Under the pieces are notes generated by a model. The model was not told where the DNA came from. It made no database searches and worked only from the letters and a program-made list of their open reading frames with translations. Source: an uncultured Verrucomicrobiae bacterium (GTDB lineage Bacteria > Verrucomicrobiota > Verrucomicrobiia > Limisphaerales > JAFGQR01). Taken from it: 64,000 nucleotides of DNA. Positions 12,001-39,373 of the stretch are shown here, one piece after another. Numbering within the stretch: position 1 is the stretch's first letter; each line of letters opens with the position of its first letter. Both the position numbers and the translations under genes were made by a program. Location: assembly GCA_963788655.1 (NCBI GenBank), contig CAWBHS010000022.1, positions 96,001 to 160,000 on the forward strand, in the 5' to 3' direction.

Positions 12001-15000
12001 GGTTTCGTTGATGGAAATGGAAATCGCGACGCTCGCGCTCACCGCGGCGCCACCATCGGACGTGGCTCCGGTCTTGGCCATGGTGGTCATGGTTTGACTC
12101 GAAGTGGCATTGAGCTTCATGTCGCGGAGTGTTCCGGTCAGTTGAGCAGCGTCTTCAATCTCGGCGCGAGTCATGGTGTCGGCGGCGATGTTCAGAGCCA
12201 GGGAGGCGCCTACGCCCACGTCGGAACCCGAGGCGCCACCGGTGGTCGTCGGCTGCGCGGAGGCGGTGTAAGTGGCAGTATTGGTCGCGGTCAACTCAAC
12301 GTCGCCACCCGCAATGATCACGGCAGCACCCGACTTGACCAAGGCTTCGGTGCGGTTCTTGACGATGTTGATGGCTAACGCGCCGGCGACCCCAACGTCC
12401 GAGGCGCCGGCACCGGACATGGCCGTAGCACTGAACGTGTGGGTGGCGTCGCCGGAACTCGTCATCACGGCTTCCAGTGCGAGGCTGCCGGCGTTGACAT
12501 TGGCGTTGCCAGCAATCGACGCTTCGTTCACCACTTCGGCATAGTTGATTGCCACGGCGGCACCGACACCCACGCCTGATCCGCCTTGGGCGGGACTGGC
12601 AAAGTTCGAGCCGCCGCCGGTGCTGCCCTGCACGGTGCTGGCGTTGGCTTGAGCCGAAGAGTCGGTATCGTTGCTGGCGCCGATCGCCAACGCGTTGCTG
12701 ACTTGGACCGTAATGCTTCCGGTTGTCGAAGCGTGGGAGGTTGAATTGGCCAGGTTCACCGCAATGGCCGCCGCCACACTGACGGTGCCATCGGAGGTTT
12801 CAGCGGAAGGCGTGTCGGTGGTGCCGGAATCCGCCACGCCGTTGTCCATCGCCTGTTGATCACCGTAATCGCGTTGGTTGCCGGTCTCCTGGTTGACGCC
12901 GTCAGCCGGGGCTTGCGAATTTTCTTTGGTGCCTTTGGCGCTGGCGGTTGCTTCGGCCTTGCTGGTGGCCGCGGAATGGGCGTTGACCGTAGCGCTGTCT
13001 CCGGCCGTTAGGGAACGAGCGAGAGTGGCCGTGACAGTGTCGTTGGCAATGTTCAACGCGAGGGACGCACCAACTGCCACGTCAGAGCCGGCCGCGGTGC
13101 TGTCAGCAGTCGAGGTGGTCGAAGCAGTGTGCGTTGCCGACAGGGTCAAGTCGCCGGACAAGCTCACGGCATTGCCAGTGCCCAGGCGGGCGGTCGTGGT
13201 ATTATTGGCGATAGTGATCGCGGCGGCGGCACTGACGCCGGTTCCGCCCTGCGATTCGGCGCCGGTACTGGCGGCCGTGGCCAAGGTATGATTGGCGGTG
13301 GCGGTGAGCGACAAATTGTCCGGAGTGCCATGAAGTTGAACCGTATCTTCGATCTCCGCCCGCGTGGTGTTCTCGGTAATGCTGAGCGCCACCGACGCGC
13401 CTACACCAACGTCTGAACCGGTGGCGCCACCTGCAGTTGTTGGCTTGGCGTTCACGGTGTGTTCTGATTGATTGACTGCCGTCAACTGGATATCGCCGCC
13501 GTTGACGGTCACCGATGTGCCCGATTCGATGATGGCTTCACTGGTATTGTTGACGATGTTGATCGCCAACGATCCCGCCACGCCGGTGTCGGTCGCGCCG
13601 GCACCGCTGGTGGCTTCGGCTTTGAACGTTTGCGTCGTGTCCCCGGAAACGTCCGTCATGACTGCTTCTTGGGAGAGACCACCCGCGCTGATAGTGCTAT
13701 TGGCACCGATGCTCGCTTCGTTGGTGGTTTCGACCCAGTTCAGCGCTACGGCCACGCCGACACCGGTCGTCGTGGCTTTGCCCGTAGCTTGGCCATCAGC
13801 CGTGGCGCTGGCGTCGGTCTGATTGGAAACGCTCAAGGTCAGCAGGCCACCCGCGATCACGTTGCCGTTGGCAGGAATCATGGCTTTCGCATTATTAAAT
13901 GCGAGATTCAAGGCGAGAGCGGCGCCAACGCTGACGGCCCCGTCGCTGGTTTCGGCGCTGGGGGCATCGGTGGTGCTGGTGCCGGCTTTGCCTTCGCCAA
14001 AACTCTTTTGGTCGGCGACCTGATCGTTGGCGGTGCTGTTGCCGGATTGGTTTTGTTCCTTGTCTTTTTCGGTGCCCTTGGCGCTGGCAGTGGCGCTGGC
14101 GCTGGTGGCCGCGCTCGCGTGGGCGGAGAACGTCACATCGCCGGCGGCGCTCAAGGCGCGATCCGTGGTGGCGGTGGTGGTGTCGGTCACCAGGTTCAGG
14201 GCCAGCACGGCGCCCACGGCTACGTCGGCACCCGCGGCTTCGCCAGTGGCAGTCGTCGTGGCACCGGCCGTGTGGGTCGCAGTCGCATTGAGTGAACCGC
14301 TCAAGGTCAAGCTTGCGCCCGTGCCCAAACGTGCCGTGGTGGTGTTCTGGGCCAAGGTAATGGCGACGGCGGCACTGACCGCCGTCCCGTCGCTCGATTC
14401 GGCGCCTGCTTGGGCGGTGGTGGTGAACGTGTGTTGACTCGTGGCGGTCAAGCTGAAGTCGTGCGCGCCGCTGACTGTCGCACCGTCGGCCAGTTCGGCA
14501 ATGGCGTCGTTGGCTGGCGCCAGATTCAACGCCACCGATGCGCCTACGCCTACGTCCGATCCGCTGGCGCCTCCGTCGCTTGTCGGCTGAGCGGTGGCGA
14601 TGTGCTCGGATTGGTTGACCGCGCTAAGGCTCACGTCGCTGCTGGTCAGTGTAATGGTAGAGCCACTCCCGATCAGCGCCCGGCTCCGATTGACCGGCAC
14701 CAGGTTCAACGCCAGTGAACCCGCCACTCCGGTGTCGGTCGCCGCGGCGCCACTGGTGGCTTCGGCTCGGAAGGTTTGGGTCGTGTCCCCGGAAACATCT
14801 GTCATCAACGCCTCCACCGTCATGTCGCCGGCGCTGATCGTGCTGTTGGCGCCGATGCTGGCTTCGTTGACTGTCTCCACCCAGTTCAACGCCACCGCCA
14901 CGCCCACACCGGTCGTTGTGGCCTTGCCCGCGGCCCGGCCATCGGCCACCGCTTGCGCATCGGTCTGGTTGCTGGCGCTCAAGCTCAACACTCCGGCGGC

Positions 15001-17904
15001 GGTCACGTTACCAGCGGCAGGAATCAACGCCTGGGAAGTGCTTTGCACCAGGTTCAAGGCCAATGCTGCCGCCACGGTTGTTGCTCCGTCGCTGGTCTCG
15101 GCGCTGGGGGCATTGGTGGTGCTGGTGCCGGCTTTGCCTTCGCCAAAACTCTTTTGATCAGCGACCTGATCGTCCGCGGTACTGTTGCCGGATTGGTTTT
15201 GTTCCTTGTCTTTCTCGGTGCCCTTGGCGCTGGCAGTGGCGGTGGCGCTGCTGATTGCGCTGGCGTGGCTGGCAAATGTCACATCACCGGCGGCGCTCAA
15301 TGCACGATCCGTGGTGGCGGTGGTGGTGGCGGTCACCAGGTTCAAGGCCAGCACGGCGCCCACTGCAACGTCCGTGCCGGCGGCTTCGCCACTGGCGGTG
15401 GTGGTCGCGCTGGCAGAATGGATGGCAGCAACTTCAGAATTGCCAGTGAGTGACAGCGCCGATCCGGTTCCCAATCGCGCCGTGGTTGAATTCTTTGTGA
15501 GCGTCGTGGCCACCGCCGCACTGACCGCCACGCCATCGCTGGCTTCGGCGCCGGTTTCAGTGGTCGTGGTGAAGGTGGATTGACTGGTGGCATTCAGCGT
15601 AAGATCGTTCGCTCCGGTTAAAGTGGCCCCGTCCGCCAATTCCGCCAGGGTTTCGTTGATGGGCACCAGATTGAGCGCGACAGAGGCCCCGACGCCCACG
15701 GTCGGATCTTCGCCCTGGGGAGGTTTCACGACGGGCTTGGCTTCGACGGTGCCGGCGGTCGTGTTGCTCGATATCAGACTGACATTGCCGCCATTGGCGT
15801 TGACGAAACTGCCGCTCTTGATCATTGCGTCATTACGATTGCTGAGGAAGTTGATCGCCAGAGCGCCGGCCACGCCCACGTCGGTCGCACCAGTGCCGGA
15901 GGTGGCTACGGCACTGAATGAATGTCCGGCGGAGGCGAGCGCCTCGATGGAAACGGTGTTGGCCGTAAGATCCAAGTTGCCGCTGAGATAAGCTTCATTG
16001 GTGGTGTCCGCGACGTTGATGGCCACGGCGACGCCGACGCCGGTGGTTGAATCTGCGGCAGTGCTGTCGGCGGTTGCGGACGAAGTAGTGGTGGAACGGG
16101 CCCGGACGCGGAGGTCATTGGTGGCCACGACGGGATTGGTGGTGGCGAGGAAGGCTTCGGTATGCCGGGTCAGGTCCGTAATGGCCAGGGCCCCCACGAC
16201 ATTGACCTGGCCGTCACTGGTTTCGGCGTTGTAATCGTTGAGCTTGGTTTGCGTGTCGGAATTATTGTCGGTCGCGCCGCCAATCGTGGATTTGGCAGTG
16301 GTTGAGATATCCTCCGTCGAACTCGCGTCAATCTGCACGTTGGCTGCGGAGATGGACGCGTTATTCTCGGCGAATGCCCGGGTTGTCGAGTTGACCAACG
16401 CAAACGCTAATGTTCCGCCGACGGTAGTATCGCCTCCAGCAGTGCCATCCGCCATGGTGGTGGCGATAATGTCGTTGTCAGCGGAGAGTGCCAAAGTGCC
16501 CCCCGCGAGGATTGTGGTGGTGTCGGAAAGGCGCGCCGTTGCGGCACTGTCAATCAAGGAGGTAGCCAAGGCAGCATCCACGTCTGAATCGCCTCCACTG
16601 GAAGCGGCCAGGGCATTCGCGGTAGTTTCAACCGTTGATTGCGCGGTAATCGTGACATTCCCCGCGGCGGTAATCTGCGAATTGCCGGTAACCGCCACCG
16701 AAGCAGTGGAATCAACGTCAATGACCGCCAACTCGGCCCCTTGCATATTGAGAAGGCCTTGGGCGGTTGCGTTGATCGTGCTGCTGGCCGTGAGGTTCAC
16801 ATTGCCAGCTTGAATCGTGGCACCGTCGAGCGTGATGGTGGCGCTCGCGCTGGCATCGGTGTCGGTTTTGGTTACGGACGCGTTCAGGCTCACATCGCCG
16901 GGGGTGAAACCGGAATCCGCTTGTGCCAGAAGACGTGCGCCAACGGCCAGGGAAATATCCCGGGCAGAAAGTGTGATATCGCCGGAGTCACCGGCCGACG
17001 CATCGGATAATGGATCCGAGCCCGCACCTAGATTGCGGCTGGATAATGTTGCCCCGCTAGCAACGGAAATAGTGGTGCCAGCTTCGATCGTCAGATTGTG
17101 CAGGTCTTTGCCTCCAATCGAACCACCTAGGGAAACTGAGCTTCCCGCGACCAAGGTCAAGTTGTCGGCGGTGCCATCGTCGTTGCCCGCGATGGTCGCC
17201 ACCGAGGTGATGGTGATGCTTCCCGTGGCTTCAATGCGGCGAGTGCCCACGATAATGACGGGTCCATCGTAGGTCAGATTACCCGTTACTTGAACATCCG
17301 AAGAAATCACCAGGGGTGAAGCCGCCAATGGCAAACCATTGTCGGTTGCAGCAAGCGCTGCTTCCAAGATTCCGCCGACACGTGAGTTTGCCGCAGCGCA
17401 GGCCGCTAGCTCAGACAACGCCGCTGGCGGAGCGTTGGCGACACGGAGTGAATCCGTGAGTTCCTGAACCATGACGTTCGAGGTTTCCGGGACCGAACTG
17501 CCGACGGACTGAGTGTTGGTTGGCTCGACGGAGCCAAGCGTCGGAGCAATTGGTTCGTTGACGGAAGACGTAGCTTGGACTTCGGCGGAGTCGGCTGGCA
17601 GAGCCTTCTCAGACTTATCGGAGGCTGCCGATGTTGCGGATTGTTCGCTTGGTGTGGCAGCTTCCCCGACCAAGCCATCAAAAACATCGCCCGCTTGCGT
17701 GCTGGGATCGTAAGTCAATTCCGAGGTTTCACTGTCAATGGTCTGAGCCTCGGCTGGGATAACCAGCATGGCGGCGGAAGGATCATCAGTGGTCAGGCTG
17801 GGAGCGGGGTGGGCAATCCCGTCGGCAGAAAGCAATACGCGAGGCTCCAGCGCTTCCAACAGGAACTGGCTGTTTCTGCTTCCAGTCTGAAATCCTCTAC
17901 CCAT
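1..17904 (-). CDS. Giant LEPR-xLL-domain, RTX-repeat surface/adhesin-like protein (>=5968 aa, 3' end outside window)
   Basis: ATG at 17904 gives MGRGFQTGSRNSQFLLEALEPRVLLSADG, with an in-frame TGA upstream at 17941-17943. The same frame reads VEGGDGNDIIHGTDSADVLIGGAGNDRIFGYAGNDTIDGG at positions ~123-1. The ORF track lists no stop-terminated ORF from this start, and spot translations at ~9500-9700 and ~800-2900 are in frame. Confidence 0.93.
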   Translation of the reverse strand, partial: MGRGFQTGSRNSQFLLEALEPRVLLSADGIAHPAPSLTTDDPSAAMLVIPAEAQTIDSETSELTYDPSTQAGDVFDGLVGEAATPSEQSATSAASDKSEKALPADSAEVQATSSVNEPIAPTLGSVEPTNTQSVGSSVPETSNVMVQELTDSLRVANAPPAALSELAACAAANSRVGGILEAALAATDNGLPLAASPLVISSDVQVTGNLTYDGPVIIVGTRRIEATGSITITSVATIAGNDDGTADNLTLVAGSSVSLGGSIGGKDLHNLTIEAGTTISVASGATLSSRNLGAGSDPLSDASAGDSGDITLSARDISLAVGARLLAQADSGFTPGDVSLNASVTKTDTDASASATITLDGATIQAGNVNLTASSTINATAQGLLNMQGAELAVIDVDSTASVAVTGNSQITAAGNVTITAQSTVETTANALAASSGGDSDVDAALATSLIDSAATARLSDTTTILAGGTLALSADNDIIATTMADGTAGGDTTVGGTLAFALVNSTTRAFAENNASISAANVQIDASSTEDISTTAKSTIGGATDNNSDTQTKLNDYNAETSDGQVNVVGALAITDLTRHTEAFLATTNPVVATNDLRVRARSTTTSSATADSTAADSTTGVGVAVAINVADTTNEAYLSGNLDLTANTVSIEALASAGHSFSAVATSGTGATDVGVAGALAINFLSNRNDAMIKSGSFVNANGGNVSLISSNTTAGTVEAKPVVKPPQGEDPTVGVGASVALNLVPINETLAELADGATLTGANDLTLNATSQSTFTTTTETGAEASDGVAVSAAVATTLTKNSTTARLGTGSALSLTGNSEVAAIHSASATTTASGEAAGTDVAVGAVLALNLVTATTTATTDRALSAAGDVTFASHASAISSATATASAKGTEKDKEQNQSGNSTADDQVADQKSFGEGKAGTSTTNAPSAETSDGATTVAAALALNLVQSTSQALIPAAGNVTAAGVLSLSASNQTDAQAVADGRAAGKATTTGVGVAVALNWVETVNEASIGANSTISAGDMTVEALMTDVSGDTTQTFRAEATSGAAATDTGVAGSLALNLVPVNRSRALIGSGSTITLTSSDVSLSAVNQSEHIATAQPTSDGGASGSDVGVGASVALNLAPANDAIAELADGATVSGAHDFSLTATSQHTFTTTAQAGAESSDGTAVSAAVAITLAQNTTTARLGTGASLTLSGSLNATATHTAGATTTATGEAAGADVAVGAVLALNLVTDTTTATTDRALSAAGDVTFSAHASAATSASATASAKGTEKDKEQNQSGNSTANDQVADQKSFGEGKAGTSTTDAPSAETSDGAVSVGAALALNLAFNNAKAMIPANGNVIAGGLLTLSVSNQTDASATADGQATGKATTTGVGVAVALNWVETTNEASIGANSTISAGGLSQEAVMTDVSGDTTQTFKAEATSGAGATDTGVAGSLAINIVNNTSEAIIESGTSVTVNGGDIQLTAVNQSEHTVNAKPTTAGGATGSDVGVGASVALSITENTTRAEIEDTVQLHGTPDNLSLTATANHTLATAASTGAESQGGTGVSAAAAITIANNTTTARLGTGNAVSLSGDLTLSATHTASTTSTADSTAAGSDVAVGASLALNIANDTVTATLARSLTAGDSATVNAHSAATSKAEATASAKGTKENSQAPADGVNQETGNQRDYGDQQAMDNGVADSGTTDTPSAETSDGTVSVAAAIAVNLANSTSHASTTGSITVQVSNALAIGASNDTDSSAQANASTVQGSTGGGSNFASPAQGGSGVGVGAAVAINYAEVVNEASIAGNANVNAGSLALEAVMTSSGDATHTFSATAMSGAGASDVGVAGALAINIVKNRTEALVKSGAAVIIAGGDVELTATNTATYTASAQPTTTGGASGSDVGVGASLALNIAADTMTRAEIEDAAQLTGTLRDMKLNATSSQTMTTMAKTGATSDGGAAVSASVAISISINETTARFGTGNPTTLTRDFGAAATHTGNVTTTADGEAAGADVAVGASLALNIINDTTFATVARDLDAGGAAMISSHASSSAMSDGKASAKGTDSSKTGSQDNSDQQVKAQKDHAENTGGTSSDDTPSAETSDGPVGVAATLALNIVIAQAEAALADNTSVIAAGQFTVSTSNNVDASANSNATTVKSSTGVGAAVAINYVEAVNAASIGNNASVNAQGVTVESVMTDVSGDTTHTITAEATSGAGAKDVGVAGSLALNLVNNRTEARILPGAAIALNGGDLIVRAVKTSSSVATAKPAEGGASGEDVGVGASAALNFAFATNDANATRAEIADTAQVNGTARDVTVSATFTTTVTTTAQTGSSGGTAVAAAVAISIEASDTTAHLGSGNTLNATGDLTVEAKHTAEVETSADGTTAATDVAVGASLVLAVVEEAAVANVARSVNAGGAVSIASRAITTSNATAKASAKGSKPDDKDADQQTSDQASFAGSDAVIPAVKGLLGNANNQSSDKTKSDSADVGVAAALSVNVVIVESTASVAANQTIEANGHFSLIASADVPATATADAIATDSDTSVGAAVALNIPNLTAEASIGTGVSVSAASITVQGLMGATDPNAYTERALAGSGAEETGVAGSISILVLTTSSQALVSDDASLNSAAGITVQAENEMELQNIAGAGVFSKGNVGVGASVAVNYIDNTTRASLGARVRADANDSLSVTANYSLAPVDIDIGINLDFDLFPLAIAVSGSLSDETSVAGSVVVTILSETTEATIGDDAQINVPVAPAQETGSSGRESAHFSAEERQSGLTSAATILGAPLPTQTVILSAVAYTRLVNAAGVVAIGSSVGVGASVEIGVLNQDTQATIGNGAAVHARDDISVQAQSENSITSLAANVSGGQSVGVSGAASVYVIDAETDAQVAGNATLDAGGNLTVSASNEAEIDLIAGGLGIGGDAGVGASNTTLVRDDTVQASIGGNAHLATGGNAGLAVTSISSEDIFTLAITGGGSATAGIAGSATVNTLTDTTHASIGAGTQVDAISAASDPSVMVRAEDDTKLISAAGGLGIGGTVGVAAGADVAVINKGTQAFIAHDVTVTADGDVQVLADSREDLASIAPGAAIGGSAAIMGSASVYVMTITTRAFIGDDPDDAVTPAGTTTVQANGNILISATDDTELDQIAGNIGGSAGVTAGAAAAVNLINKTIEAFVGDDTVITALGQTPGLNADTGQFTVSFVPDFINPANDVHSGNDTITFSAGHNFTTGDAVIYRNGGGADIGGLTNEDEYFVIVLDANTIQLAATKTDALAGTPIIDLDASVATGAQHSLSALGEVKAPPSTSGNSQNADANGDGQSELTDAALTGQRTASAQTQFFKGLAVTATNQDDIETIAVSGGFGVVGSVNIGGSVHILNVTTNAFIGDGARVNENNTGADSAQTVRVVAGNDYYHLGIGGVGAGGVVFAVAPGADVSVVTLNTQAHIGDDAHVQARRDVQVVAHADEDVLSITAGLAVSGAVSISGAVSVLTLDATTFAWIGDGAIVTADGNVLVSSRDDTQVNMIAASAGVGIYIGGGGHSVGVMILNKDTRSWIGASATVDAKGQAGDLTVFDGGITSSFSTENIRGVAVQSSSSEDVLNIAPAGGGGLFFGVAGGVTVTLIDSDTKAFIGALADINTDRSNVNNLQSVNVSAANAVDVLTIAGGHAVGIGALAGGVDIGRVENDTTASIGSGSNVHASRDVDVNALSLKDVNSFALSLGVGGVALAGSVSVWSLGSMFDPSYSDGANSANSLQGDANINAQTSDAFAGQEAEKTHSPISLQLGNYEDGSGNPSVATESTRQLGSGLQQATSAISGQAPTQQRVTNAVNTTTATPPGTSAFIDGSAVIVAGGDINVRALEDIGFDALAGGAVFGVVGIGASVVVADVSSNTLAYASGTLTANGDINVIAGLTSDLETTALAGQSGFVLLGAAVVVLKAEHTQIAFVAAGSSITQADTVNVDADRNETISATAGEAQLGAVVAGAAFTKVTAEGLTQAYLGDGVNVGQTQGQAVNDLSINATTNIEATGQAHAISVGIGSGAVNFADIEIAPDLRASIGANANVQVAHDVNVVSQSTADATAHLFRFQLGAAAFGLSLASAEIAPTLQTFIGANSNVTAGNNILLRAWHNFGPGGALAGKGAEAEAHAPVGGFLAANGTVPEATATADLNTEVSSGSTLHAGQDITLEAKAFNDAQADAYALSIGLVAWGSSKATATVGGTTAIHLNGSVTGANDLVLLAQGINTTHAVAEAASGGLLAGIGAEADARTTPNISTAIGSNSVVKVAGDISLTALSDADAYAEAPGAVFGLLARGETDADARVNATVSTAIGSNATINAGGNLTLQTAHNYDLLGNVLTGHGATADASATAGGLIGLEATRADASSTASVEAEVGAGTSVIAGGNVAITSRASHLANADADGRAFGVFGKGAAVADAAINDNNGAYLDDGVSAHAGGDFTIIAESTHNATSNTKARGAGLIGVSRADSGTSVDYETTVGVGDGAKVLASENLLFHALTSSNASADSDSNAAGLGASAHADADTSLSGTTTLAGRTLTKLGEGVTIEAGSAALLAEIALLHTKANSDTRARAVGADSEADANVDVNANAEVIVGQNNHLTGTDELALAATMGGLSGSATADAQCSIGFADANASLTFAPKSNVEVQDGSLLETRMLRVESTVVPASVTARASARANFLLGITFTSENRHYSPASTILFNANVIIYSGPDVEIEVDAAGTIVTDLGPGSPPRASVVGNTVVVADLANRLGSALFTSGSSSASLSGTATFQFETSFDHVTIINHSTKDLQIGNIEVFDRSQPIVQVLRLDRGGFQSTVNPHDNQCTILIENTANPSGALNDIVLAGFIDNPIGATLIHNAGGDILAGIGQSLETRQLEFTTTGGGLGTAATRLQAGLVKTDDLPVPSLLAEAQDSIYLQLNGILRDPRPDADLVVDLISIVSAAGEVDVNIGPGTINSQTPTGRIAVVLRSGPTLSGLLVDERFNPAVAVNGAANTIQFGYEHGFTPGERVIYNNGGDTSIGGLVDGEVYYVRVVNPTTIQLARSEVEALERVDTVIDPATQVDSDQETIDLGAPHGLADGDAIVYRNGGGTSVGGLVNGETYFVRVVDATTIKLAMTKEAALAVPRTFDPMPTVNSASDTINFGRAHGFTTGQPVRYLNGGGTSIGGLTNGTIYYAIKLDATTIQLAASQADALAGTPVFIDLNSDAATGTAHSFYAETVFDPAGAVNSTNDTINLGFEHRLVTGQAVLYRNGGGTSIGNLTDGTVYYVRVVDATTIQLAASQADAEAATPVIIDLNGSVATGTAHSLNADLFIDPVAQVNAATDTIDLGVAPVFNNGDPVLYRTNGGAPISGLTNNTIYFVRVVGPTSIKLALTQADAQTLPPTFDPASAVKSGAETIDLGYAHGLLTGQAVTYRNGGGSSISGLTDGVTYYAVVVNGTTIKLAATHADAVAAIPVIINLNGAVATGSAHSVAVEGIELDGSAASGTHSLKALQQIDPTLGVNSANDSINFGFDHGFSDGDAVTYRNGGGTSIGGLTNGVTYYVRVVNATTILLTATPAGGVIDLDGSVGSGTAHSLDVESIDLDASVATGSAHTISVEAFFNPAKAVDDARDVIDLGYAHGYATGQAVIYDTGGGSAIGGLTSDTVYYVIALGPNTIQLAASLADALAGTPVIDLDATLASGSKHNFRVALDPTVASGTAHTIRGDAIYLDDNGTITRILESDIARIQPEVTNTDVSALSLYRSTDLSAHNIVTLLAANSALHAYQINSETGDITVTLQDSAFEGEDLVLLEGSTVTAPQGAITLNVADDLDGSANRLIAAANAVTIRGDYGNADPLLGSVVDLRGDITGSSLTITTDEDDDTVNLANALANAPTTIRTFGGNDAILVGLAAVSETARDGAHTLNGGQGGMLRVEGGDGNDIIHGTDSADVLIGGAGNDRIFGYAGNDTIDGG
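830..2919 (-). repeat. Eight tandem ~75-100 aa protein repeats inside the giant ORF
   Basis: Consensus TI[DN][LF]GxxHGxxxGxxVxYxNGGGTSIGGLxxGxxYYVxVVxxTTIxLA occurs near 2870, 2645, 2425, 2145, 1865, 1650, 1320 and 1000, with a ninth isolated copy at ~8070-8310. Confidence 0.9.
9572..9641. repeat. REP-like GTAG palindrome doublet embedded in-frame in the giant CDS
   Basis: GTAGCAGCGGACGTGAGTCCGCTC (9572-9595) and its perfect reverse complement (9618-9641), with a 22-nt spacer. Confidence 0.9.
10450..16300 (-). repeat. About five tandem ~380-aa (~1.15 kb) macro-repeats in the giant ORF
   Basis: An AETSDG motif recurs near 16210, 15088, 13941, 12788 and 11612, and ASAKG[TS] near 15220, 14075, 12930, 11740 and 10605. 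DNA at 13991 matches 15137 (offset 1146 nt). Confidence 0.85.
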
Positions 17905-17997
17905 GAACCGCTTCGGCAAGAACTCCGCCGCCCGCCCAGGTCAGAAATCAATTGGGCAACGTAGTGGTCGTTGAGCTAACCTGAAATTATCAGCGAT

Positions 17998-18026
17998 CCT
18001 ATACCCTATTACCGCGGAGGCGTCAA
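17998..18026 (-). promoter_or_regulatory. Candidate sigma70 promoter of the giant gene
   Basis: Minus strand TTGACG-17 nt-TATAGG about 95 nt upstream of ATG 17904; the -10 element is imperfect. Confidence 0.3.
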
Positions 18027-32529: not shown

Positions 32530-33555
32530 ATGACCCTGCTCGCCGTTGAAACATCCTGCGACGAAACCAGTGTCGCCATCATTCGCGACGGGCGGGTATT
32601 GGCCAATATTGTCTCCTCGCAAATCCGTCTCCATTCGGAATATGGCGGGGTGGTTCCCGAATTGGCCACGCGCGAACACTTGCGGAACTGGCTGCCCGTG
32701 GCCCGCACTGCCTTGCGCGAGGCGGCAGTCCAGGTAATGGAGATCGACGCCGTCGCCGCGACGCAGGGACCGGGCTTGCCGAATGCGTTGCTCATCGGTT
32801 TCCAAGCCGCCCAAGCCCTGGCGTTCGCGCTCAATAAACCGTTTGTTGGCGTTCATCACCACGAAGCCCATTTGTATTCGCCGTGGATTGCCGGCGACCC
32901 TCCGGCCGCGAACTTCGGCGCCTTCCAACCCAACGTTTCGCTGATTGTCAGCGGCGGGCACACCATGCTGGTTCACGTCCGGGCTGAACTGGAGCACCAT
33001 CTCCTCGGCGCTACGCTGGATGACGCGGCGGGTGAATGCTTTGACAAGACCGCCAAACTTATTGGATTGCCCTATCCCGGCGGACCGGAGATGGACCGTC
33101 TGGCTGAAGCCGGCAATCCGGCAACGTTCAATTTCCCTCGTCCGCTGCTGACCGAGGCCAACGACGATTTCAGTTTCTCGGGCTTGAAGACTTCCGTGCG
33201 TTACTTTCTGCAAAAGCGTCCCGAACTGCTGAACGATCCGCAGGCGTTGCGGGATCTCTGTGCCAGTGTGCAAGCGGCCATTGTCGAAGTGTTGGTCACC
33301 AAAACCATTCAGGCCGCCCGCCGGTTGGGAGTGGAGTGCGTCACCGCTTCCGGCGGCGTCACCTGCAATCGCACCTTGCGTCGCGACCTGGCCGCCGCCT
33401 GCAAAAGAAACAACCTGATCCTGCGACTGGCCGAGCGTACCCTCTGCACCGACAACGCCGCGATGATCGGCATTTTAGCGGAACGCAAATTGCGGCAACA
33501 AAAGCAGGAAACACTGCTGGACGCCGAAATTGCGCCCAACTGGGCCCTGAGATAA
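32530..33555 (+). CDS. tsaD: tRNA N6-adenosine threonylcarbamoyltransferase
   Basis: ETSCDET, GGVVPELA, GPGL, HHHEAH, VSGGHT, DDAAGECFDK, FSFSGLKT and CTDNAAMIG. Confidence 0.97.
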   Translation: MTLLAVETSCDETSVAIIRDGRVLANIVSSQIRLHSEYGGVVPELATREHLRNWLPVARTALREAAVQVMEIDAVAATQGPGLPNALLIGFQAAQALAFALNKPFVGVHHHEAHLYSPWIAGDPPAANFGAFQPNVSLIVSGGHTMLVHVRAELEHHLLGATLDDAAGECFDKTAKLIGLPYPGGPEMDRLAEAGNPATFNFPRPLLTEANDDFSFSGLKTSVRYFLQKRPELLNDPQALRDLCASVQAAIVEVLVTKTIQAARRLGVECVTASGGVTCNRTLRRDLAAACKRNNLILRLAERTLCTDNAAMIGILAERKLRQQKQETLLDAEIAPNWALR

Positions 33556-33694
33556 TGACCATTGACCAATAACCAATGACCACAGAAGGACCAGTTTCCA
33601 ATGACCAGTCAGCCAGTCGCAGGCGGCCGGAACCTGGATTGGAGCTTGGAGATTTGGTCATTCTTTGGGTATTGGGTATTGGTCAATGGTCATT
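33554..33694. repeat. Inverted heptamer tandem arrays (AATGACC)n ... (GGTCATT)n
   Basis: AATGACC ATTGACC AATAACC AATGACC (33554-33581) and GGGTATT GGGTATT GGTCAAT GGTCATT (33667-33694). Confidence 0.85.
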
Positions 33695-33772
33695 CCTCGT
33701 TTTGATCGCTGCGCCTTGAACTGGCCACAACCTGAGGGGCGTCAGGAACAAGTGGCTGGCGCTTGCCCCCGG

Positions 33773-33858
33773 GTCAACGGCGAAACGCCGTTAACCGCGC
33801 TCAAGACGGGCGCGCTCCCTATTCATCCGGCATCCGGAATCAAGCATCCGGCATCGAA
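33773..33858. repeat. Degenerate double-hairpin REP copy followed by a (CATCCGG)x5 heptamer array
   Basis: GTCAACGGCGAAACGCCGTTAAC...GGGCGCGCTCC (33773-33818), then CATCCGG CATCCGG AATCAAG CATCCGG CATCGAA (33824-33858). Confidence 0.75.
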
Positions 33859-33864
33859 ACATAT

Positions 33865-33895
33865 TGTTGACATATCAACAGTTGCCAGCTAGACG
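33865..33895 (+). promoter_or_regulatory. Candidate MarR operator overlapping the -35 element
   Basis: The perfect inverted repeat TGTTGA-CATA-TCAACA (33865-33880) contains TTGACA, and TAGACG lies 17 nt downstream of that -35. Confidence 0.6.
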
Positions 33896-33902
33896 TAACG
33901 GC

Positions 33903-34394
33903 GTGAAACCGAAACCGGTTCAACCCGGGCCGCGGTACGCGACGTTGATTCAACTGTTGCGCACGGCCGACACGCTCTGGAACGCCAGCCGGAGCCTGTT
34001 CGCGCATTGGGAGCTTAGTCCCAGCCAATTCAATGTGCTCAATCTCCTGAACGACCAGCCGGCGGGTCTGACCCAAACCGAACTGAGCCGCCATTTGCTC
34101 ATGCACCGATCGAACCTCACCGGAATGGTGGATCGATTGGAGCAGCGCGGTTTGGTCATTCGTCGGGACAATCCCGGCGACCGCCGTACTTACTGCGTGC
34201 AACTCACGCACGCGGGTCAGCAAATCATGGGGGAGGTGCTGCCCTTTTATTACCAGGCGGCGGAAGCAGTCTGGGGCCATCTGCCCATCAAACGTGCCCG
34301 ACAATTGGTGGGCGAACTGGCCACTGTATGCGCCAACGCTGAGCGCGCCGCGGCGGGCGCTGAGGGCTTGAAACCGCCCCCGCTTCGAAGCTAG
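33903..34394 (+). CDS. MarR-family transcriptional regulator
   Basis: LSPSQFNVL, LTQTELS, RSNLTGMVDRLEQRGLV and DRRTYCVQLTHAG. GTG start at 33903; the track start at 33864 lies inside the operator. Confidence 0.93.
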   Translation: MKPKPVQPGPRYATLIQLLRTADTLWNASRSLFAHWELSPSQFNVLNLLNDQPAGLTQTELSRHLLMHRSNLTGMVDRLEQRGLVIRRDNPGDRRTYCVQLTHAGQQIMGEVLPFYYQAAEAVWGHLPIKRARQLVGELATVCANAERAAAGAEGLKPPPLRS

Positions 34395-34411
34395 AACCGA
34401 CTCACCAGTTT

Positions 34412-35851
34412 ATGAGTTCTCAGTCCCCCAACGCGAATGCCGCCAGGTCGCCGGCCCCGTCTCAGTCGCCGGCGTTACCCGGGGCACGGCCCGCGTTGAT
34501 CTTGCTGCTGCTGATCAACCTGTTCAATTACCTGGACCGCCAGGTGCTGGCCGCGGTGGTACCCAATATCAAACAAAGCTTTTTTGGCGCGCCGGGCCAA
34601 CCGGGCGGCCTGGCGGAAACCAGCCCCGCGTTGCAGACGATGTTGGACTGGTGCCAACTGCACTTGGGATTCAAGCCGGAGAACGCGCTGATCGGGGTAT
34701 TGTCCATGGCGTTCATGGTGGTGTACATGATTGGCGCCCCAGTCTTTGGGCGACTGGCCGAACGCTGGTCGCGCTGGCTGCTGGTGGGCGTGGGGGTGAT
34801 TCTCTGGAGCCTGGCCAGCGGCGCGTCGGGTCTGGCGGCCACGTTCGGTCTCTTGCTATTGACGCGCTGTTTCGTCGGGATCGGCGAAGCGGCTTATGGG
34901 CCGGTGGCACCAGCGGTGATTTCCGATTTCTATCCGGTGAAAGTCCGCGGGCAGGTGCTGGCTTGGTTTTACATGGCAATCCCGGTCGGCAGCGCGCTCG
35001 GGTATGTAGTCGGCGAGCAGGTCGCCAAATCGTCGATTGGCCAGTGGGGCGCGAGCTGGCTGGGATTGCAATCGGAGAGCTGGCGTTGGGCGTTTTATCT
35101 GGTCGTGCCGCCAGGGATTCTGTTGGGATTGTGGTCGCTGTTCATGCGCGAACCGGCCCGGGGGCAGACCGACCTGCAACAACCGGCGCCGGCTGCCAAA
35201 GTGCGCTGGGCTGATTACCTGATCCTGTTCCGCACTCCGTCCTACGTTCTGTGTACGCTCGGCATGTGCGGCATGACGTTTGCCATGGGCGGCATCGGCT
35301 TTTGGATGCCGTATTACCTGGAGAACCGGCCTGGAGCCAGCGGGTCGCCCACCACCCTCTTCGGGGCCATCGTGGTGGTGGCTGGATTAACTGCCACGTT
35401 GCTGGGTGGCTTCGCCGGCGACAAGCTGCGGTCCCGTTTTCCCGGCTCGTATTTCCTCGTTTCCGGCGCGGCGATGCTCACCGGTTTTCCGCTGTTCCTG
35501 CTGGTGTTGAAAGCACCGTTTCCCTGGATCTGGCTGTTCGTTTTCCTGGCGGTCTTTTGCCTGTTTTTCAATACCGGTCCCACCAATACGATCCTCGCGA
35601 ACGTCACCCATCCGGCCATGCGCACCGCGGGCTTCGCCTTGAACATTCTGATCATCCATTCGCTGGGCGATGTAATTTCGCCGGTCATCATCGGCATCCT
35701 CAGCGACAAGTACAACATGAACGTGGCCTTCTTTGTAGTCGGCCTGATGTTCCTGGCCAGCGGCATCCTGTGGCTGTGCGGCGCGCGGTTCCTGGCACGG
35801 GACACGGAACTCGCGCCCACGCGACTCAACTCAGCGAAACACTCCTTATGA
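34412..35851 (+). CDS. Spinster (Spns)-type MFS transporter
   Basis: About 12 hydrophobic segments, with INLFNYLDR, APVFG, LLLLTRCFVGIGEA, FYMAIPVGSALGY, WRWAF and HSLGDVISPVIIGILSD. Confidence 0.9.
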   Translation: MSSQSPNANAARSPAPSQSPALPGARPALILLLLINLFNYLDRQVLAAVVPNIKQSFFGAPGQPGGLAETSPALQTMLDWCQLHLGFKPENALIGVLSMAFMVVYMIGAPVFGRLAERWSRWLLVGVGVILWSLASGASGLAATFGLLLLTRCFVGIGEAAYGPVAPAVISDFYPVKVRGQVLAWFYMAIPVGSALGYVVGEQVAKSSIGQWGASWLGLQSESWRWAFYLVVPPGILLGLWSLFMREPARGQTDLQQPAPAAKVRWADYLILFRTPSYVLCTLGMCGMTFAMGGIGFWMPYYLENRPGASGSPTTLFGAIVVVAGLTATLLGGFAGDKLRSRFPGSYFLVSGAAMLTGFPLFLLVLKAPFPWIWLFVFLAVFCLFFNTGPTNTILANVTHPAMRTAGFALNILIIHSLGDVISPVIIGILSDKYNMNVAFFVVGLMFLASGILWLCGARFLARDTELAPTRLNSAKHSL

Positions 35852-38016
35852 CTTGGTTGCTCCGACTCCTCGTTCGTCTGCTTTTCCGGTTCCGCGCCTT
35901 CAATACCGAAGTGCTGAACACGCCCGGACCGGTGCTGCTGCTGCCCAATCATGTTTCGTGGATTGACTGGTTGTTCCTTGGTGTTTGCCTCGAAGACGAT
36001 TGGCGGTTCGTGACCTCGATGGAAATGGTGCAGAAAGGCCATCGCTGGATGCGGACAATCATCGACAACCGGCGCACGTTTCCAGTCGATACGATGTCCC
36101 CATACACGGTGCGGCGCCTGGCCGAATACCTGCAAAAAGGCGGCCGGTTGGTGTTGTTTGCCGAAGGCCGATTGTCGCGGACCGGCACGCTAATGAAACT
36201 GTTCGATGGCACCGGATTTCTGCTGCACAAAACCGGCGCCAAGGTCATCACCGCCTACCTGCGTGGCGCCCAACGATTGCCCTTGTCACCCAATCGCGAA
36301 CGGAAGCAATGGTTCCCGCGCGTTACGGCCCATTTCGGCGCGCTCCAGACACCGCCGCGCGTGGAACATCTCAGCACGGCCAAAACCCGCGCCGTGTTGA
36401 CCACCTGGCTCCGCGATCAACTGGTGCGCCAGCAGTTCGAAGTCGAAATGCAGTTGGGCCCCGCCACCGTGCCGGAAGCCATCGTGGCCACCGCCGCGCG
36501 CCTGCCCGGATTCAACATCATGGAAGATGTGACCGGCAAACTGTCTTATCGCCAGTTGCTGGTCGGCGCGGATTTGCTGGCACGCCAATGGGAGAAACTG
36601 CTACCGGCCGCCAACCGTGTGGCCACCGCCGCGCAGCCGGAACGGGTCGGCGTGCTCCTGCCGAATGTCAGCGGGATGCCGACATCGTTGCTCAGTTTGT
36701 GGCTGGCCGGCAAGGTGCCGGCGATTCTGAATTACTCGACCGGCATGAACACCATGCTGGCGTGCGCCCAACTGGCCGGCTTGAAGCACATCATTACTTC
36801 GCGCGGCTTCCTGGAGCGCGCTCGGATTCCCAGCGAACCATTCACGCAAGCCGGCATTGAGTTGCTCTTCGTCGAGGACGTGCGCCCGCGGATTTCCGGT
36901 ACTGCAAAACTCGCGGCACTATTGCGGGTGTCATTCAATCCACATTCGGTTCTCCGGCGCGGTTCGTCGGGCGAAACCGCCGCCGTGATCCTGTTCACCA
37001 GCGGTTCGGAAGGCGTGCCGAAAGGCGTCGAGCTGACTCATACCAACCTGCTGGCCAACATCCGGCAGGTGCTGGCGACGGCGGATCTGCAAGACACCGA
37101 CCGCGTGTTCAATGCGCTGCCATTGTTCCATAGCTTTGGCCTGACGGTGGGCATGTTGCTGGGATTGGTGCGCGGGCTTTATGTGTTTCTCTACATTTCG
37201 CCGTTGCACTACCGCGTGGTGCCCACGGTGTTTTACGACCGCGACTGCACCATTTTGCTGGGGACCAATACGTTTCTGAACGGTTATGCGCGCAAGGCCC
37301 ACACTTATGATTTTCGTAGTTTGCGCTACCTGTTTGCGGGCGCGGAAAAGCTTCAGGACAACACGGCCAAGGTGTGGGCCCAGCGTTTTGGCGTGCGCGT
37401 GCTCGAAGGTTACGGCGCCACCGAGTGCAGTCCTTGCATCAGCGTGTGTACGCCGCTGCAACCGCAGCACGGTTCGGCGGGCCGTTTCCTGCCCGGCCTT
37501 GACCATCGGCTCGAACCGGTCGAAGGCGTCGATAACGGCGGCCGGCTGTTCGTGCGCGGACCAAACGTCATGCGCGGCTATCTGAATCCGGAAGCCAATG
37601 CGCAGTTTCAAGCGCTGGATGGCTGGTATGACACCGGCGACATTGCGTCGGTGGACGAGGCCGGATTTGTTCACATTCTGGGCCGCCTGAAACGCTTCGC
37701 CAAAATCAGCGGCGAAATGGTGAGCCTGACGGCCGTTGAGGATGCCTTGGCCGGCACGTTTCCGCATTACGGTTTGCGCTGCCAAGTGGCCATCGTCAGT
37801 CGGCCGGACAGTGACAAAGGCGAAGTGCTGGTGGCAGTAACCAACGAATCCAAACTTCAGCTCGACGAAATTCGCGCTGCGCTCCGCGCCAAAGGACTGC
37901 CCAACTTGTGCGCGCCACGCGAACTCAAGCTCGTCAAAGAAATCCCGAAGTTGGGCACCGGCAAAGTCAATCACCGCGAACTGGCAAACGTCTTGAAGTC
38001 CCAAGCAGCGACGTAG
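35848..38016 (+). CDS. aas: Bifunctional 2-acylglycerophosphoethanolamine acyltransferase / acyl-ACP synthetase (722 aa)
   Basis: PlsC motifs NHVSWID and FAEG, adenylation motifs LFTSGSEGVPKG, EGYGATE, YDTGD and GRLKRFAKISGEMVSL. ATGA overlap with the MFS stop. Confidence 0.92.
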   Translation: MTWLLRLLVRLLFRFRAFNTEVLNTPGPVLLLPNHVSWIDWLFLGVCLEDDWRFVTSMEMVQKGHRWMRTIIDNRRTFPVDTMSPYTVRRLAEYLQKGGRLVLFAEGRLSRTGTLMKLFDGTGFLLHKTGAKVITAYLRGAQRLPLSPNRERKQWFPRVTAHFGALQTPPRVEHLSTAKTRAVLTTWLRDQLVRQQFEVEMQLGPATVPEAIVATAARLPGFNIMEDVTGKLSYRQLLVGADLLARQWEKLLPAANRVATAAQPERVGVLLPNVSGMPTSLLSLWLAGKVPAILNYSTGMNTMLACAQLAGLKHIITSRGFLERARIPSEPFTQAGIELLFVEDVRPRISGTAKLAALLRVSFNPHSVLRRGSSGETAAVILFTSGSEGVPKGVELTHTNLLANIRQVLATADLQDTDRVFNALPLFHSFGLTVGMLLGLVRGLYVFLYISPLHYRVVPTVFYDRDCTILLGTNTFLNGYARKAHTYDFRSLRYLFAGAEKLQDNTAKVWAQRFGVRVLEGYGATECSPCISVCTPLQPQHGSAGRFLPGLDHRLEPVEGVDNGGRLFVRGPNVMRGYLNPEANAQFQALDGWYDTGDIASVDEAGFVHILGRLKRFAKISGEMVSLTAVEDALAGTFPHYGLRCQVAIVSRPDSDKGEVLVAVTNESKLQLDEIRAALRAKGLPNLCAPRELKLVKEIPKLGTGKVNHRELANVLKSQAAT

Positions 38017-38062
38017 AAGTATGGACGCGAAAATGAGCGCCAGGTCGAACACTGCGAAACTG

Positions 38063-38168
38063 AAAGCGGGAGCAAGCTCCACGCACTCCCAACGCTGGCG
38101 CGCAATTCGGAAAGACCAGGCAGAACGTCGCGTCAACGTTTGGAGTGCGTCCGGCTTGCCGGCGCTTT
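38063..38168. repeat. REP-like GGAG-type palindrome pair
   Basis: AAAGCGGGAGCAAGCTCCACGCACTCC (38063-38089) and GGAGTGCGTCCGGCTTGCCGGCGCTTT (from 38142) are imperfect inverted copies. Confidence 0.65.
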
Positions 38169-38209
38169 TGAACGGAGCGTGAAACAGGGATAAGGAACAA
38201 GAATCGCTT

Positions 38210-39373
38210 TTGAAAACGGAAAGCTCACAACCAGCCAAACGTGCTCGCTCCGATAGCGCAGCGTCCCGCCAACCGCGAACGTCTCGCAAAAAATGGTGGC
38301 GCCGTTTGCTGCTGGGCTTGGCCATATTGCCGTTGGTCGGCATTGCCGGTTGCGCGCTGCTGTTTCAAGGGCCGTATTTGCCGCCGCAGCCGCTGCCCGA
38401 CGAACCATGCTTGGACATGCACTGTCACGTGGCTGGCATTGGCGCGGGGAACAGCGGTTGTTTCATTTCCGAACACCTGCGGAACAGCTACAAATTCGGC
38501 ATCTACTTGCGCAGCTTTGGGGTCACGAAAAAGGAGGTGGAGCAGCAAGGCGACGCCCTCATTGTGCGCCGGTTGTCCGAACAAATTGCCGCCAGCCGGC
38601 ACGTGGACCAAGCCATCATCCTGGCCATGGACGGCGTGGTCAATAACGCGGGCGAATTGGACCGCCAGCGCACTGAATTTTATGTGCCCAACGAATTCGT
38701 GGCGCAGCAAACTGCCAAATACACCAACCTCCTCTTCGGCGCGAGCATCAATCCCTACCGGCATGATGCGCTGGAGCGTCTCGAATGGGCGCATGCCCAC
38801 GGCGCCAGACTGATCAAGTGGCTGCCCTCCATCATGCTCATCGATCCAGGTGACGAACGACTGGTGCCGTTTTATCGCAAGCTGGTCGAGTTGAAGATGC
38901 CCCTGCTCACGCATGCCGGGAAGGAACGGTCCTTCACGCACGCACGCGACGAGTTTGCGGACCCGGAGCGTCTGGAATTGCCGTTGCGCCTGGGCGTCAC
39001 CGTCATTGCGGCGCACGTGGCATCCACCGGATCGCACGCCGGCGAACGCGATACCGATCGCCTGGCTCGCCTGATGACGCAACATACCAACTTGTGGACC
39101 GACATCTCGTCCCTAACCCAGTTCAACAAGCTTGGTTATCTACGCGAGGCCTTGCAGCGCCCGGCGTTCCAAGGACGATTGCTCTACGGCACGGACTATC
39201 CCCTGATCAACACGCTCATGGTGTCGCCCTGGTATTTTCCGTTGAACCTCAAAGTGCGCCAAATGTGGAAGATCAGCCGGATCGACAATCCCTGGGACCG
39301 GGATGTCGCCTTGAAGCAAGCGCTCGGGGTGCCTCCCGAGGTGTTTCGGCGGGCTGACCAAATCCTTCGCTGA
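38210..39373 (+). CDS. Membrane-anchored metal-dependent amidohydrolase (Amidohydro_2-like)
   Basis: N-terminal TM segment, DMHCH, ASINPYR, KWLP, LLTHAG, IAAH, DISSL and LYGTDYP. Confidence 0.85.
   Translation: MKTESSQPAKRARSDSAASRQPRTSRKKWWRRLLLGLAILPLVGIAGCALLFQGPYLPPQPLPDEPCLDMHCHVAGIGAGNSGCFISEHLRNSYKFGIYLRSFGVTKKEVEQQGDALIVRRLSEQIAASRHVDQAIILAMDGVVNNAGELDRQRTEFYVPNEFVAQQTAKYTNLLFGASINPYRHDALERLEWAHAHGARLIKWLPSIMLIDPGDERLVPFYRKLVELKMPLLTHAGKERSFTHARDEFADPERLELPLRLGVTVIAAHVASTGSHAGERDTDRLARLMTQHTNLWTDISSLTQFNKLGYLREALQRPAFQGRLLYGTDYPLINTLMVSPWYFPLNLKVRQMWKISRIDNPWDRDVALKQALGVPPEVFRRADQILR

Follow-up and report, generated by a model that had tools for sequence, protein, structure and literature searches.

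In Escherichia coli, the transporter LplT, which belongs to the major facilitator superfamily (MFS), and the enzyme Aas are encoded in one operon, in the order aas-lplT and with reading frames that overlap by 8 nucleotides (nt), and lysolipids are flipped inward and then re-acylated. In passages on this system, LplT/Aas is said to occur ubiquitously among Gram-negative bacteria and is tied to lyso-phosphatidylethanolamine (lyso-PE) made by Lnt, which takes the sn-1 acyl chain of phosphatidylethanolamine (PE), so that lyso-PE remains in the inner membrane as one constitutive source of LplT/Aas substrate (PMC11416262). A passage of a further paper recently tied the lysophospholipid repair system to outer-membrane homeostasis (PMC13170283). 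LplT-Aas fusions of about 1140 amino acids (aa) are represented by the curated models PRK06814 and PRK08633 and carry the MFS half first and the acyltransferase half second. In another MFS family, Spinster (Spns), the lysosomal human protein SPNS1 moves lysophosphatidylcholine (LPC) and lysophosphatidylethanolamine (LPE) from lumen to cytosol for salvage, according to passages of two reports (PMC11725778; preprint 10.64898/2026.05.09.724020). Bacterial members of this family include HnSpns of Hyphomonas neptunium and MsSpns of Mycobacterium smegmatis (MSMEG_3705); MsSpns has links with drug resistance as well as with sterol and isocitrate-lyase genes, and neither protein is reported beside aas in the passages on them. 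Here, a stretch of 64,000 nt from contig CAWBHS010000022.1 of an uncultured Verrucomicrobiae bacterium (the window) was analysed, in which a marR-family regulator gene, a Spns-type transporter gene and an aas gene lie side by side. Genes for transporters of the same type adjoin aas in many related genomes, and in this locus the Spns protein probably takes the place of LplT, as a flippase that passes lysophospholipids on to Aas.

The three genes occupy positions 33903-38016 and are co-oriented on the + strand; their coordinates were confirmed in the raw sequence and in the list of open reading frames (ORFs):

33903..34394, + strand, marR-family regulator gene (product P0001), GTG start at 33903, TAG stop at 34392-34394, 163 aa
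34412..35851, + strand, Spns-type MFS transporter gene (product P0002), ATG start at 34412, TGA stop at 35849-35851, 479 aa
35848..38016, + strand, aas (product P0003), TAG stop at 38014-38016, 722 aa, bifunctional lysophospholipid acyltransferase / acyl-acyl carrier protein (acyl-ACP) synthetase

The co-oriented trio of the original prediction, with a 17-nt gap (34395-34411) between marR and the MFS gene and an ATGA stop/start overlap between the transporter gene and aas, was verified in every coordinate: at 35848-35851 the spns TGA and the aas ATG (35848-35850) share 4 nt. Judged from this layout, the three genes may well form one operon for lysophospholipid salvage. As in E. coli, an MFS gene and aas would thus be carried in one operon with overlapping frames, and Aas is built of the same two domains. 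The transporter is of the LplT family in E. coli and of the Spinster family in the window, the gene order is reversed (spns-aas in the window; one related locus, L005, keeps aas first), and the window operon is headed by a MarR gene, unlike E. coli aas-lplT. The proposed logic of inward flipping followed by re-acylation would be the same.

P0002 (Pfam MFS_1, 9.6e-45) was assigned to the Spinster family by sequence and by structure. In a sequence search of the PDB it matched human SPNS1 (1.4e-44), SPNS2 (3.3e-40 to 6e-34) and HnSpns (E 4.3e-26, 22-23% identity), the latter being farther from P0002 than the human proteins, and the first non-Spns family was NorA (2.2e-6). The Spinster-like motifs that had been quoted for the transporter are all present in the P0002 translation, namely NYLDR (39-43), TRCFVGIGEA (151-160), FYMAIPVGSALGY (186-198) and HSLGDVISPVIIGILSD (416-432). 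An AlphaFold2 model built on 22 relatives (pLDDT 90.9, pTM 0.90) was compared with the PDB by Foldseek, where ranks 1-16 were all SPNS2, SPNS1 or HnSpns (E 7e-18 to 6e-12) and the first non-Spns match, DgoT (1.5e-10), was seven orders of magnitude weaker. The top TM-score was obtained with LPC-bound human SPNS1 (9boi, TMt 0.83, 30% identity), which is the best solved relative by sequence as well as by TM-score. It differs in being eukaryotic and lysosomal and in having no genetic linkage to an acyltransferase in eukaryotes.

In passages of a study by double electron-electron resonance and molecular dynamics, D41, R42, R122, E129 and D142 of HnSpns are given as proton switches and substrate arginine (PMC9440201). 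Their counterparts in P0002 (D42, R43, R152, E159 and D172, matched by motif spacing and by the 30-residue offset with which the phmmer match begins, query 100 being chain 70) are invariant in 22 sequences (alignment A1). The Asp-Arg pair of the first transmembrane helix (TM1) and the Arg/Glu/Asp charge network of TM4 that are typical of the family are therefore present in P0002, as they are in HnSpns and MsSpns, which share its family and fold. The luminal proton-sensor residues of SPNS1 (E87, D94, S97, R300 and S442) map ambiguously onto P0002, which has K54 at the E87 position and an insert of ~38 residues before TM2, and were not used. Compared with the Chthoniobacterales clade, the window's clade and Melainabacteria have ~20-25 more residues in the insert between TM1 and TM2, the length of which does not track Aas linkage.

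LplT itself was considered as a family for P0002 and ruled out. In a BLASTP comparison with E. coli K-12 LplT, P0002 gave only 29% identity over 113 aa (E 1e-5), which as a sequence similarity is at the level of any two MFS proteins. The LplT model NF008397 and the fusion models PRK08633 and PRK06814 were not among the best 25 of the 34 NCBIfam families matched by P0002 (listed at E <= 6.9e-4; the other 9 were weaker). E. coli LplT, used as a control, scored 579 bits with NF008397, 137 bits with PRK08633 and 106 bits with PRK06814, and matched the N-terminal 400 positions of the two fusion models. The NCBIfam comparison also gave weak similarity of P0002 to drug pumps of the drug:H+ antiporter (DHA) type. 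Taken together, the PDB search, Foldseek and the comparison with curated models bear out the earlier classification of the transporter as Spinster-type and not as LplT or a sugar or drug MFS protein. P0002 is discussed here as a proposed lysophospholipid flippase.

The third gene had been called aas in the original prediction, and its product is indeed a full-length two-domain Aas by Pfam and by alignment to E. coli Aas. P0003 contains a PlsC-type Acyltransferase domain (19-137), an AMP-binding domain (230-579) and an AMP-binding_C domain (646-706), and is collinear with E. coli K-12 Aas over its full length (38% identity, 725 columns, E 5e-161). Its PNHVSWID segment aligns with PNHVSFID of E. 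coli Aas, the HX4D motif, of which H36 is named as the catalytic histidine in a passage on the E. coli enzyme (PMC11416262). In alignment A3, H35 and D40 of this motif and the AMP-binding/adenylation motifs are invariant among 24 relatives. Against NCBIfam, P0003 scored 714 bits with PRK06814 (cut-off 1349), 514 with PRK08633 (1221) and 563 with PRK08043 (886); PRK06814 and PRK08633 are fusion models of which only the Aas part can match P0003, and only positions 431-1134 of the 1140-position PRK06814 are covered. By these scores, P0003 is a predicted Aas-type enzyme of divergent sequence and not an equivalog by the NCBI rule. None of the best 120 relatives of P0003 is a fusion or has an MFS domain. 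A complex prediction for Spns residues 20-479 (A1) with the Aas transferase domain 1-210 (A3) gave a score of 0.00 and a mark of 0.32, which speaks neither for nor against binding.

In order to see how the pairing is distributed, the Spns family was represented by 530 cluster representatives at E <= 1e-30, and a scan with A1 over one genome per species returned 586 relatives, the best 80 of which (35-77% identity) are the basis of the linkage counts. Spns, Aas, MarR and a second acyltransferase type were located in these 80 loci (given L numbers) by tblastn. An aas gene lies within the 6-kb flank of spns in 35/80 loci, being divergent in 32 and on the same strand in 3. By group, the neighbours of spns were:

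Verrucomicrobiota, 44 loci: divergent aas in 32, same-strand aas in 3, PlsC-type acyltransferase in 1, none in 8
Acidobacteriota, 8 loci: PlsC-type acyltransferase in 2, none in 6
Planctomycetota, 19 loci: none
Melainabacteria, 4 loci: none
others, 5 loci: none

The 32 divergent pairs belong to genomes of Chthoniobacterales, Spartobacteria and Udaeobacter type. The gap between the two genes is 56-283 nt in 31 of them, and aas is present in full length in 27, cut by a contig end in 4 and partial in 1. Among the 8 Verrucomicrobiota loci without linkage, 5 have less than 2.5 kb in one flank. The three co-directional loci, L005, L030 and L062, encode Spns proteins 69-70% identical to that of the window; L005 has aas and then spns with an ATGA overlap at 5965-5968, while L030 and L062 have marR-spns, one or two inserted genes and then aas. 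Linkage was thus seen in two Spns clades, with two Aas subfamilies and in four gene arrangements. Because the same transporter type adjoins aas in 35 of 80 loci, the arrangement is, as far as gene order can tell, beyond chance. The Spns-aas linkage that a neighbourhood survey had been expected to reveal was therefore recovered in these 35 loci, and it failed to appear in any of the Planctomycetota (0/19) or Melainabacteria (0/4).

Several further observations were made in these loci. The partial divergent aas of L056 (3835-4826; residues 379-691, 1175 nt from spns), the only one among the Chthoniobacterales-type loci, is possibly a decayed copy. Around Chthoniobacterales-type aas-spns pairs (e.g. 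at L015 250-798 and L020 1710-3290), a MaoC-type dehydratase gene is convergent with aas in 7 loci, and a lipase-maturation-factor (LMF1) family protein is encoded in 5 loci; both neighbours are lipid-related. In L054 and L055, two 'beta proteobacterium' metagenome-assembled genomes (MAGs), Spns is 70-77% identical to that of the window and was matched only in pieces (best segments at residues 217-466 and 22-257). Frameshifts or assembly errors are possible there, and the label fits poorly with the Verrucomicrobiota-type sequence.

The spns-linked Aas proteins fall into two subfamilies. The best model of the Chthoniobacterales type is PRK08633 (L013: 807 bits, model positions 423-1144), and that of the window type is PRK06814 (L005: 733 bits, besides the window score given above). 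Between the two types, identity is 32-34%. In a 25-row Aas tree the path from the window type to E. coli Aas is 2.29, compared with 3.19 to the Chthoniobacterales type, and the split between the types received 100 in the Shimodaira-Hasegawa-like approximate likelihood ratio test (SH-aLRT), the tree being a quick LG+G4 one that was rooted only at the midpoint. The Aas halves of the LplT-Aas fusions are thus the closest curated models for the spns-adjacent enzymes. The latter match only the C-terminal two-thirds of the fusion models, and the LplT-like N-terminal half is absent. An Aas without the LplT half and with a separate Spns gene alongside is the pattern expected of a non-orthologous replacement of LplT. 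In the Spns tree (78 rows; L054, L055 and L068 were dropped for short matches), the linked loci are placed in two supported clades, one of 15 rows including the window (SH-aLRT 100) and one of 36 rows (SH-aLRT 98). Unlinked Planctomycetota and Melainabacteria surround these clades, and the tree implies 7 changes of state.

Other acyltransferase partners, and in two loci a candidate for the enzyme that produces the substrate, were found next to spns. L030 and L062 have the operon order marR-spns-lnt-like-x-aas, the insert directly after spns carrying LNT_N and CN_hydrolase domains in L030 and CN_hydrolase in L062. The L030 protein is collinear with E. coli Lnt, whose E267 and C387 align with Glu and Cys of the L030 protein and whose K335 falls in a gap. 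Since the lnt-like gene lies within the operon, these loci hold a likely lyso-PE producer, a candidate flippase and a re-acylating enzyme, which is the counterpart of the tie between LplT-Aas and Lnt in E. coli. The stretch between spns and aas (L030 7438-9275; L062 5319-8910) holds this lnt-like gene and a second gene, whose product is a DUF7670 protein in the former locus and a B12-binding radical SAM protein in the latter. A stand-alone PF01553 acyltransferase gene is situated directly downstream of spns in L031, L052 and L058, and in L031 it is followed by a PAP2-like AtPDCT1_2 gene. In P0123 (913 aa) and P0124 (928 aa) a single chain carries a Spns domain with 69-71% identity and, behind it, a PlsC-type acyltransferase that has a long membrane extension at its C-terminus; the MFS part thus precedes the acyltransferase, as in the LplT-Aas fusions and in the window. 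The join of P0123 lies directly after the conserved transporter end, P0124 has a scrambled arginine-rich stretch within the transporter that resembles a double frameshift, and L058 (7291-7640) has the same two genes in separate, abutting frames. P0123 and P0124 could represent a real fusion or a frame error and are treated as 'fused or overlapping'.

Further partners are found in single loci. In L047 (6034-8924) the order is spns-olsB-olsA, the two latter being olsB-like and olsA-like genes for the synthesis of ornithine lipid (NF052554 139 bits and NF052552 115 bits, both under the cut-off) and OlsA being of the lyso-ornithine-lipid acyltransferase type, which hints that some members of the Spns family handle lyso-aminolipids. 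In L014 (7306-8055; a Phycisphaerales MAG) a TMEM164-related integral membrane acyltransferase (TIGR02206, 122.6 bits, cut-off 75) is encoded directly downstream of the Spns gene, and in L081 an acyl-ACP-thioesterase-like gene lies directly upstream of spns. The trait shared by the spns partners is, from their domain content, lysolipid acyltransferase function and not fatty-acid activation. A functional coupling of Spns and the acyltransferases is very likely on this genomic evidence.

In the mechanism proposed for the window, a Spinster-family transporter would stand in for LplT in an LplT-Aas-like system. Spns would pick up lysophospholipids in the periplasmic leaflet of the inner membrane, with 2-acyl-lyso-PE and its relatives as the likeliest species, and flip them, coupled to protons, to the cytoplasmic leaflet. 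There, peripheral Aas, made from the overlapping downstream frame, would re-acylate them with acyl-ACP, which its own synthetase domain would make from free fatty acid and ATP. Within this scheme, we infer the substrate, the direction, the proton coupling, the repression by MarR and the lack of LplT elsewhere in the genome. The direction from periplasmic to cytoplasmic is suggested because Aas chemistry is cytoplasmic, because the MFS-then-acyltransferase order of the fusions puts the enzyme on the cytoplasmic C-terminus, and because SPNS1 moves its substrates in what is topologically the same direction. A wider reading is tentative and is held to be somewhat doubtful: the bacterial Spinster transporters of this clade would be genuine lysophospholipid flippases that have wholly replaced LplT in Verrucomicrobiota, and this would have happened at least once in each of the two Aas subfamilies known elsewhere as LplT fusions; they would form with Lnt and Aas a self-contained lyso-PE cycle operon, and the switch would be a MarR repressor with a lipid intermediate as its signal.

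The regulator gene at the head of the operon had been taken for marR, and this is borne out by two Pfam domains of P0001 above the cut-off, MarR_2 (1.1e-17, 64.3 bits, cut-off 27) and MarR (1.9e-16, 60.1 bits, cut-off 24.6). No specific NCBIfam equivalog was matched at cut-off, and the PDB relatives of P0001 are generic MarR proteins only. The reading frame also opens at an alternative start, TTG 33864; the GTG start column is kept in L030 and L062, the 2 loci with the same marR (alignment A2), where the marR orthologues upstream of spns have 64-66% identity. Upstream of the gene, the following element was found:

33863..33882, + strand, operator-like palindrome ATTGTTGACATATCAACAGT, 21 nt upstream of the marR GTG

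Its arms, TGTTGA (33865-33870) and TCAACA (33875-33880), are separated by the spacer CATA, and a TTGACA hexamer lies inside it. The consensus ATTGTTGACATATCAACAAT is found upstream of marR in the window, L030 and L062, the flanking sequence not being kept (alignment A2). Across 81 fetched loci, the window not included, the exact pattern was present in L062 only, L030 having one mismatch. By putative binding to this palindrome over its own promoter, MarR probably represses the operon, in a candidate case of autorepression; the control may be ligand-responsive, as originally proposed. MarR accompanies spns-aas only in the window, L030 and L062, that is in 3/36 Aas-linked cases (35 loci and the window), and it is therefore placed outside the conserved core.

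The proposed handover from Spns to Aas has to be weighed against a number of observations that count against it. P0003 is under the curated cut-offs of all Aas models. The lnt-like genes reach 97.7 and 95.4 bits with TIGR00546 (cut-off 132.9), and the L030 protein has a low identity of 23% to E. coli Lnt. Linkage to an acyltransferase neighbour is limited to Verrucomicrobiota-type genomes and a few Acidobacteriota-labelled ones, with no such neighbour in 19/19 Planctomycetota, 4/4 Melainabacteria, 5/5 others and 6/8 Acidobacteriota-labelled loci; these groups are the labels of MAG records, among which mis-binned contigs are possible. The two nearest relatives of the window Spns, those of L002 (74%, or 76% in the tree alignment) and L059 (72%; tblastn), are without aas linkage and stand beside other genes, each locus having one short flank. 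A single clade for all linked Spns lineages, a group named after the tree was seen, was not rejected in the approximately unbiased (AU) test (p-AU 0.112); the Spns tree by itself is therefore no proof of two origins, and it is only the Aas side that speaks for an independent origin of the linkage. A marR gene beside an MFS gene is the usual layout of efflux-pump loci. HnSPNS is still termed an orphan (PMC11739509), and passages on the bacterial proteins report capreomycin and ethidium resistance for MsSpns and discuss HnSpns as a possible efflux pump of broad specificity (PMC9440201).

These last points favour the explanation that Spns is an efflux pump under the control of MarR, whose cargo would be drugs or toxic amphiphiles, with Aas as a neighbour via a shared general envelope-stress response and no handover of substrate. 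The MarR gene directly upstream with its conserved palindrome and the weak DHA-type similarity of P0002 agree with it, while the stop/start overlap in two opposite gene orders (window and L005) counts against it, an acyltransferase fused at the cytoplasmic C-terminus and the pairing with two Aas subfamilies otherwise fused to LplT are hard to explain without direct functional coupling, and the regulator itself is confined to the 3 of 36 cases named above; this explanation is considered improbable. Somewhat more room, at an unlikely level still, is left for a transporter that carries other amphipathic cargo to the neighbouring acyltransferase, such as free fatty acids for the synthetase half of Aas, lyso-aminolipids (e.g. 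lyso-ornithine lipid) or lysolipids scavenged from outside instead of endogenous lyso-PE. The ols genes of L047, the thioesterase-like gene of L081, the fatty-acid-activating domain of Aas and the wide range of substrates named for the family in passages of the literature (sphingosine-1-phosphate, LPC/LPE and drugs) would fit such cargo; against it, the recurring partners (Aas and stand-alone or fused PF01553 proteins) share the lysolipid acyltransferase domain and not the fatty-acid-activating one, and the lnt-like genes of L030 and L062 indicate that lyso-PE is made in the periplasmic leaflet. That the adjacency of spns and aas is due to chance or hitch-hiking and has no functional meaning is highly improbable: spns neighbourhoods are variable outside Verrucomicrobiota, but with genomes of several Mb, a gene present in one copy would, as a rough estimate, be expected within 6 kb in well under 1 of 80 loci, and four arrangements and two Aas subfamilies are involved.

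A further alternative overlaps with the proposed handover: Spns-Aas would work as described beside an ordinary LplT or LplT-Aas fusion encoded elsewhere, as an extra and perhaps substrate-specialised route. The described ubiquity of LplT/Aas and the many genomes that carry Spns without a linked aas speak for such a route. It is held to be rather unlikely, as the only aas seen per locus is unfused and next to spns, the best relatives of P0003 are unfused throughout, and no LplT-like match at E<1e-5 was found in ~0.8 Mb of related loci, which are a tiny part of those genomes. In the window itself, no second MFS, LplT or Lnt candidate was found within the 64 kb. On balance, a putative replacement of LplT by Spns is preferred, and the system of the window is probably best regarded as the known LplT/Aas repair system in a variant form, the transporter of which comes from a different MFS family.

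The surroundings of the operon were also inspected. Its neighbours are:

32530-33555, + strand, tsaD, upstream neighbour, 347 nt from marR
38210-39373, + strand, Amidohydro_2 gene, downstream neighbour, 193 nt from aas

The remaining genes of the window are of the type found in Planctomycetes, Verrucomicrobia and Chlamydiae (PVC), with sulfatases and DUF1592/DUF1588/DUF1552 proteins, and among named proteins the closest relatives are from MAGs of Verrucomicrobiota and Opitutaceae. A scan of 33400-38400 returned 0 promoter-like sites (no sigma-70-type promoter was called) and terminator-like sites at a frequency not above that in shuffles, and an Rfam search of 33300-38400 gave no match. Directly after the tsaD stop and upstream of marR lies an imperfect hairpin of ~145 nt (33554-33695), which is made of repeated CCAATGACCA-like words and their complements. 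Its RNA fold of -73.2 kcal/mol has a z-score of -5.4, 0/200 shuffles folding as well, and it has no Rfam match; it could serve as a terminator or insulator, or be a small repeat element. At 500-18000 of the window, 17 successive + strand ORFs (91-745 aa) are present, for which neither a Pfam match at 1e-5 (11 scanned) nor a PHROGs match (17 scanned) was obtained. The AT skew is strongly negative at 10-16 kb, down to -0.23, inside this block.

In the full-text literature, as far as titles and the beginnings of abstracts go and with most subscription journals lying outside, no paper was found that ties bacterial Spns to Aas or to the role of LplT. Bacterial Spinster homologues serve as structural models for human SPNS1 and SPNS2, and the genetic coupling with Aas and further lysolipid acyltransferases, joined in two loci by an Lnt-like enzyme, provides a concrete hypothesis for the orphan bacterial Spns proteins, for which an established assay exists in the uptake by E. 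coli delta-lplT spheroplasts. If the hypothesis is true, these proteins would gain a physiological substrate, and lysophospholipid repair would be carried out with a non-orthologous transporter in a whole phylum. One transporter family would then link bacterial and lysosomal lysophospholipid salvage, and the salvage performed by lysosomal SPNS1 would be an ancient property of the family that is common to bacteria.

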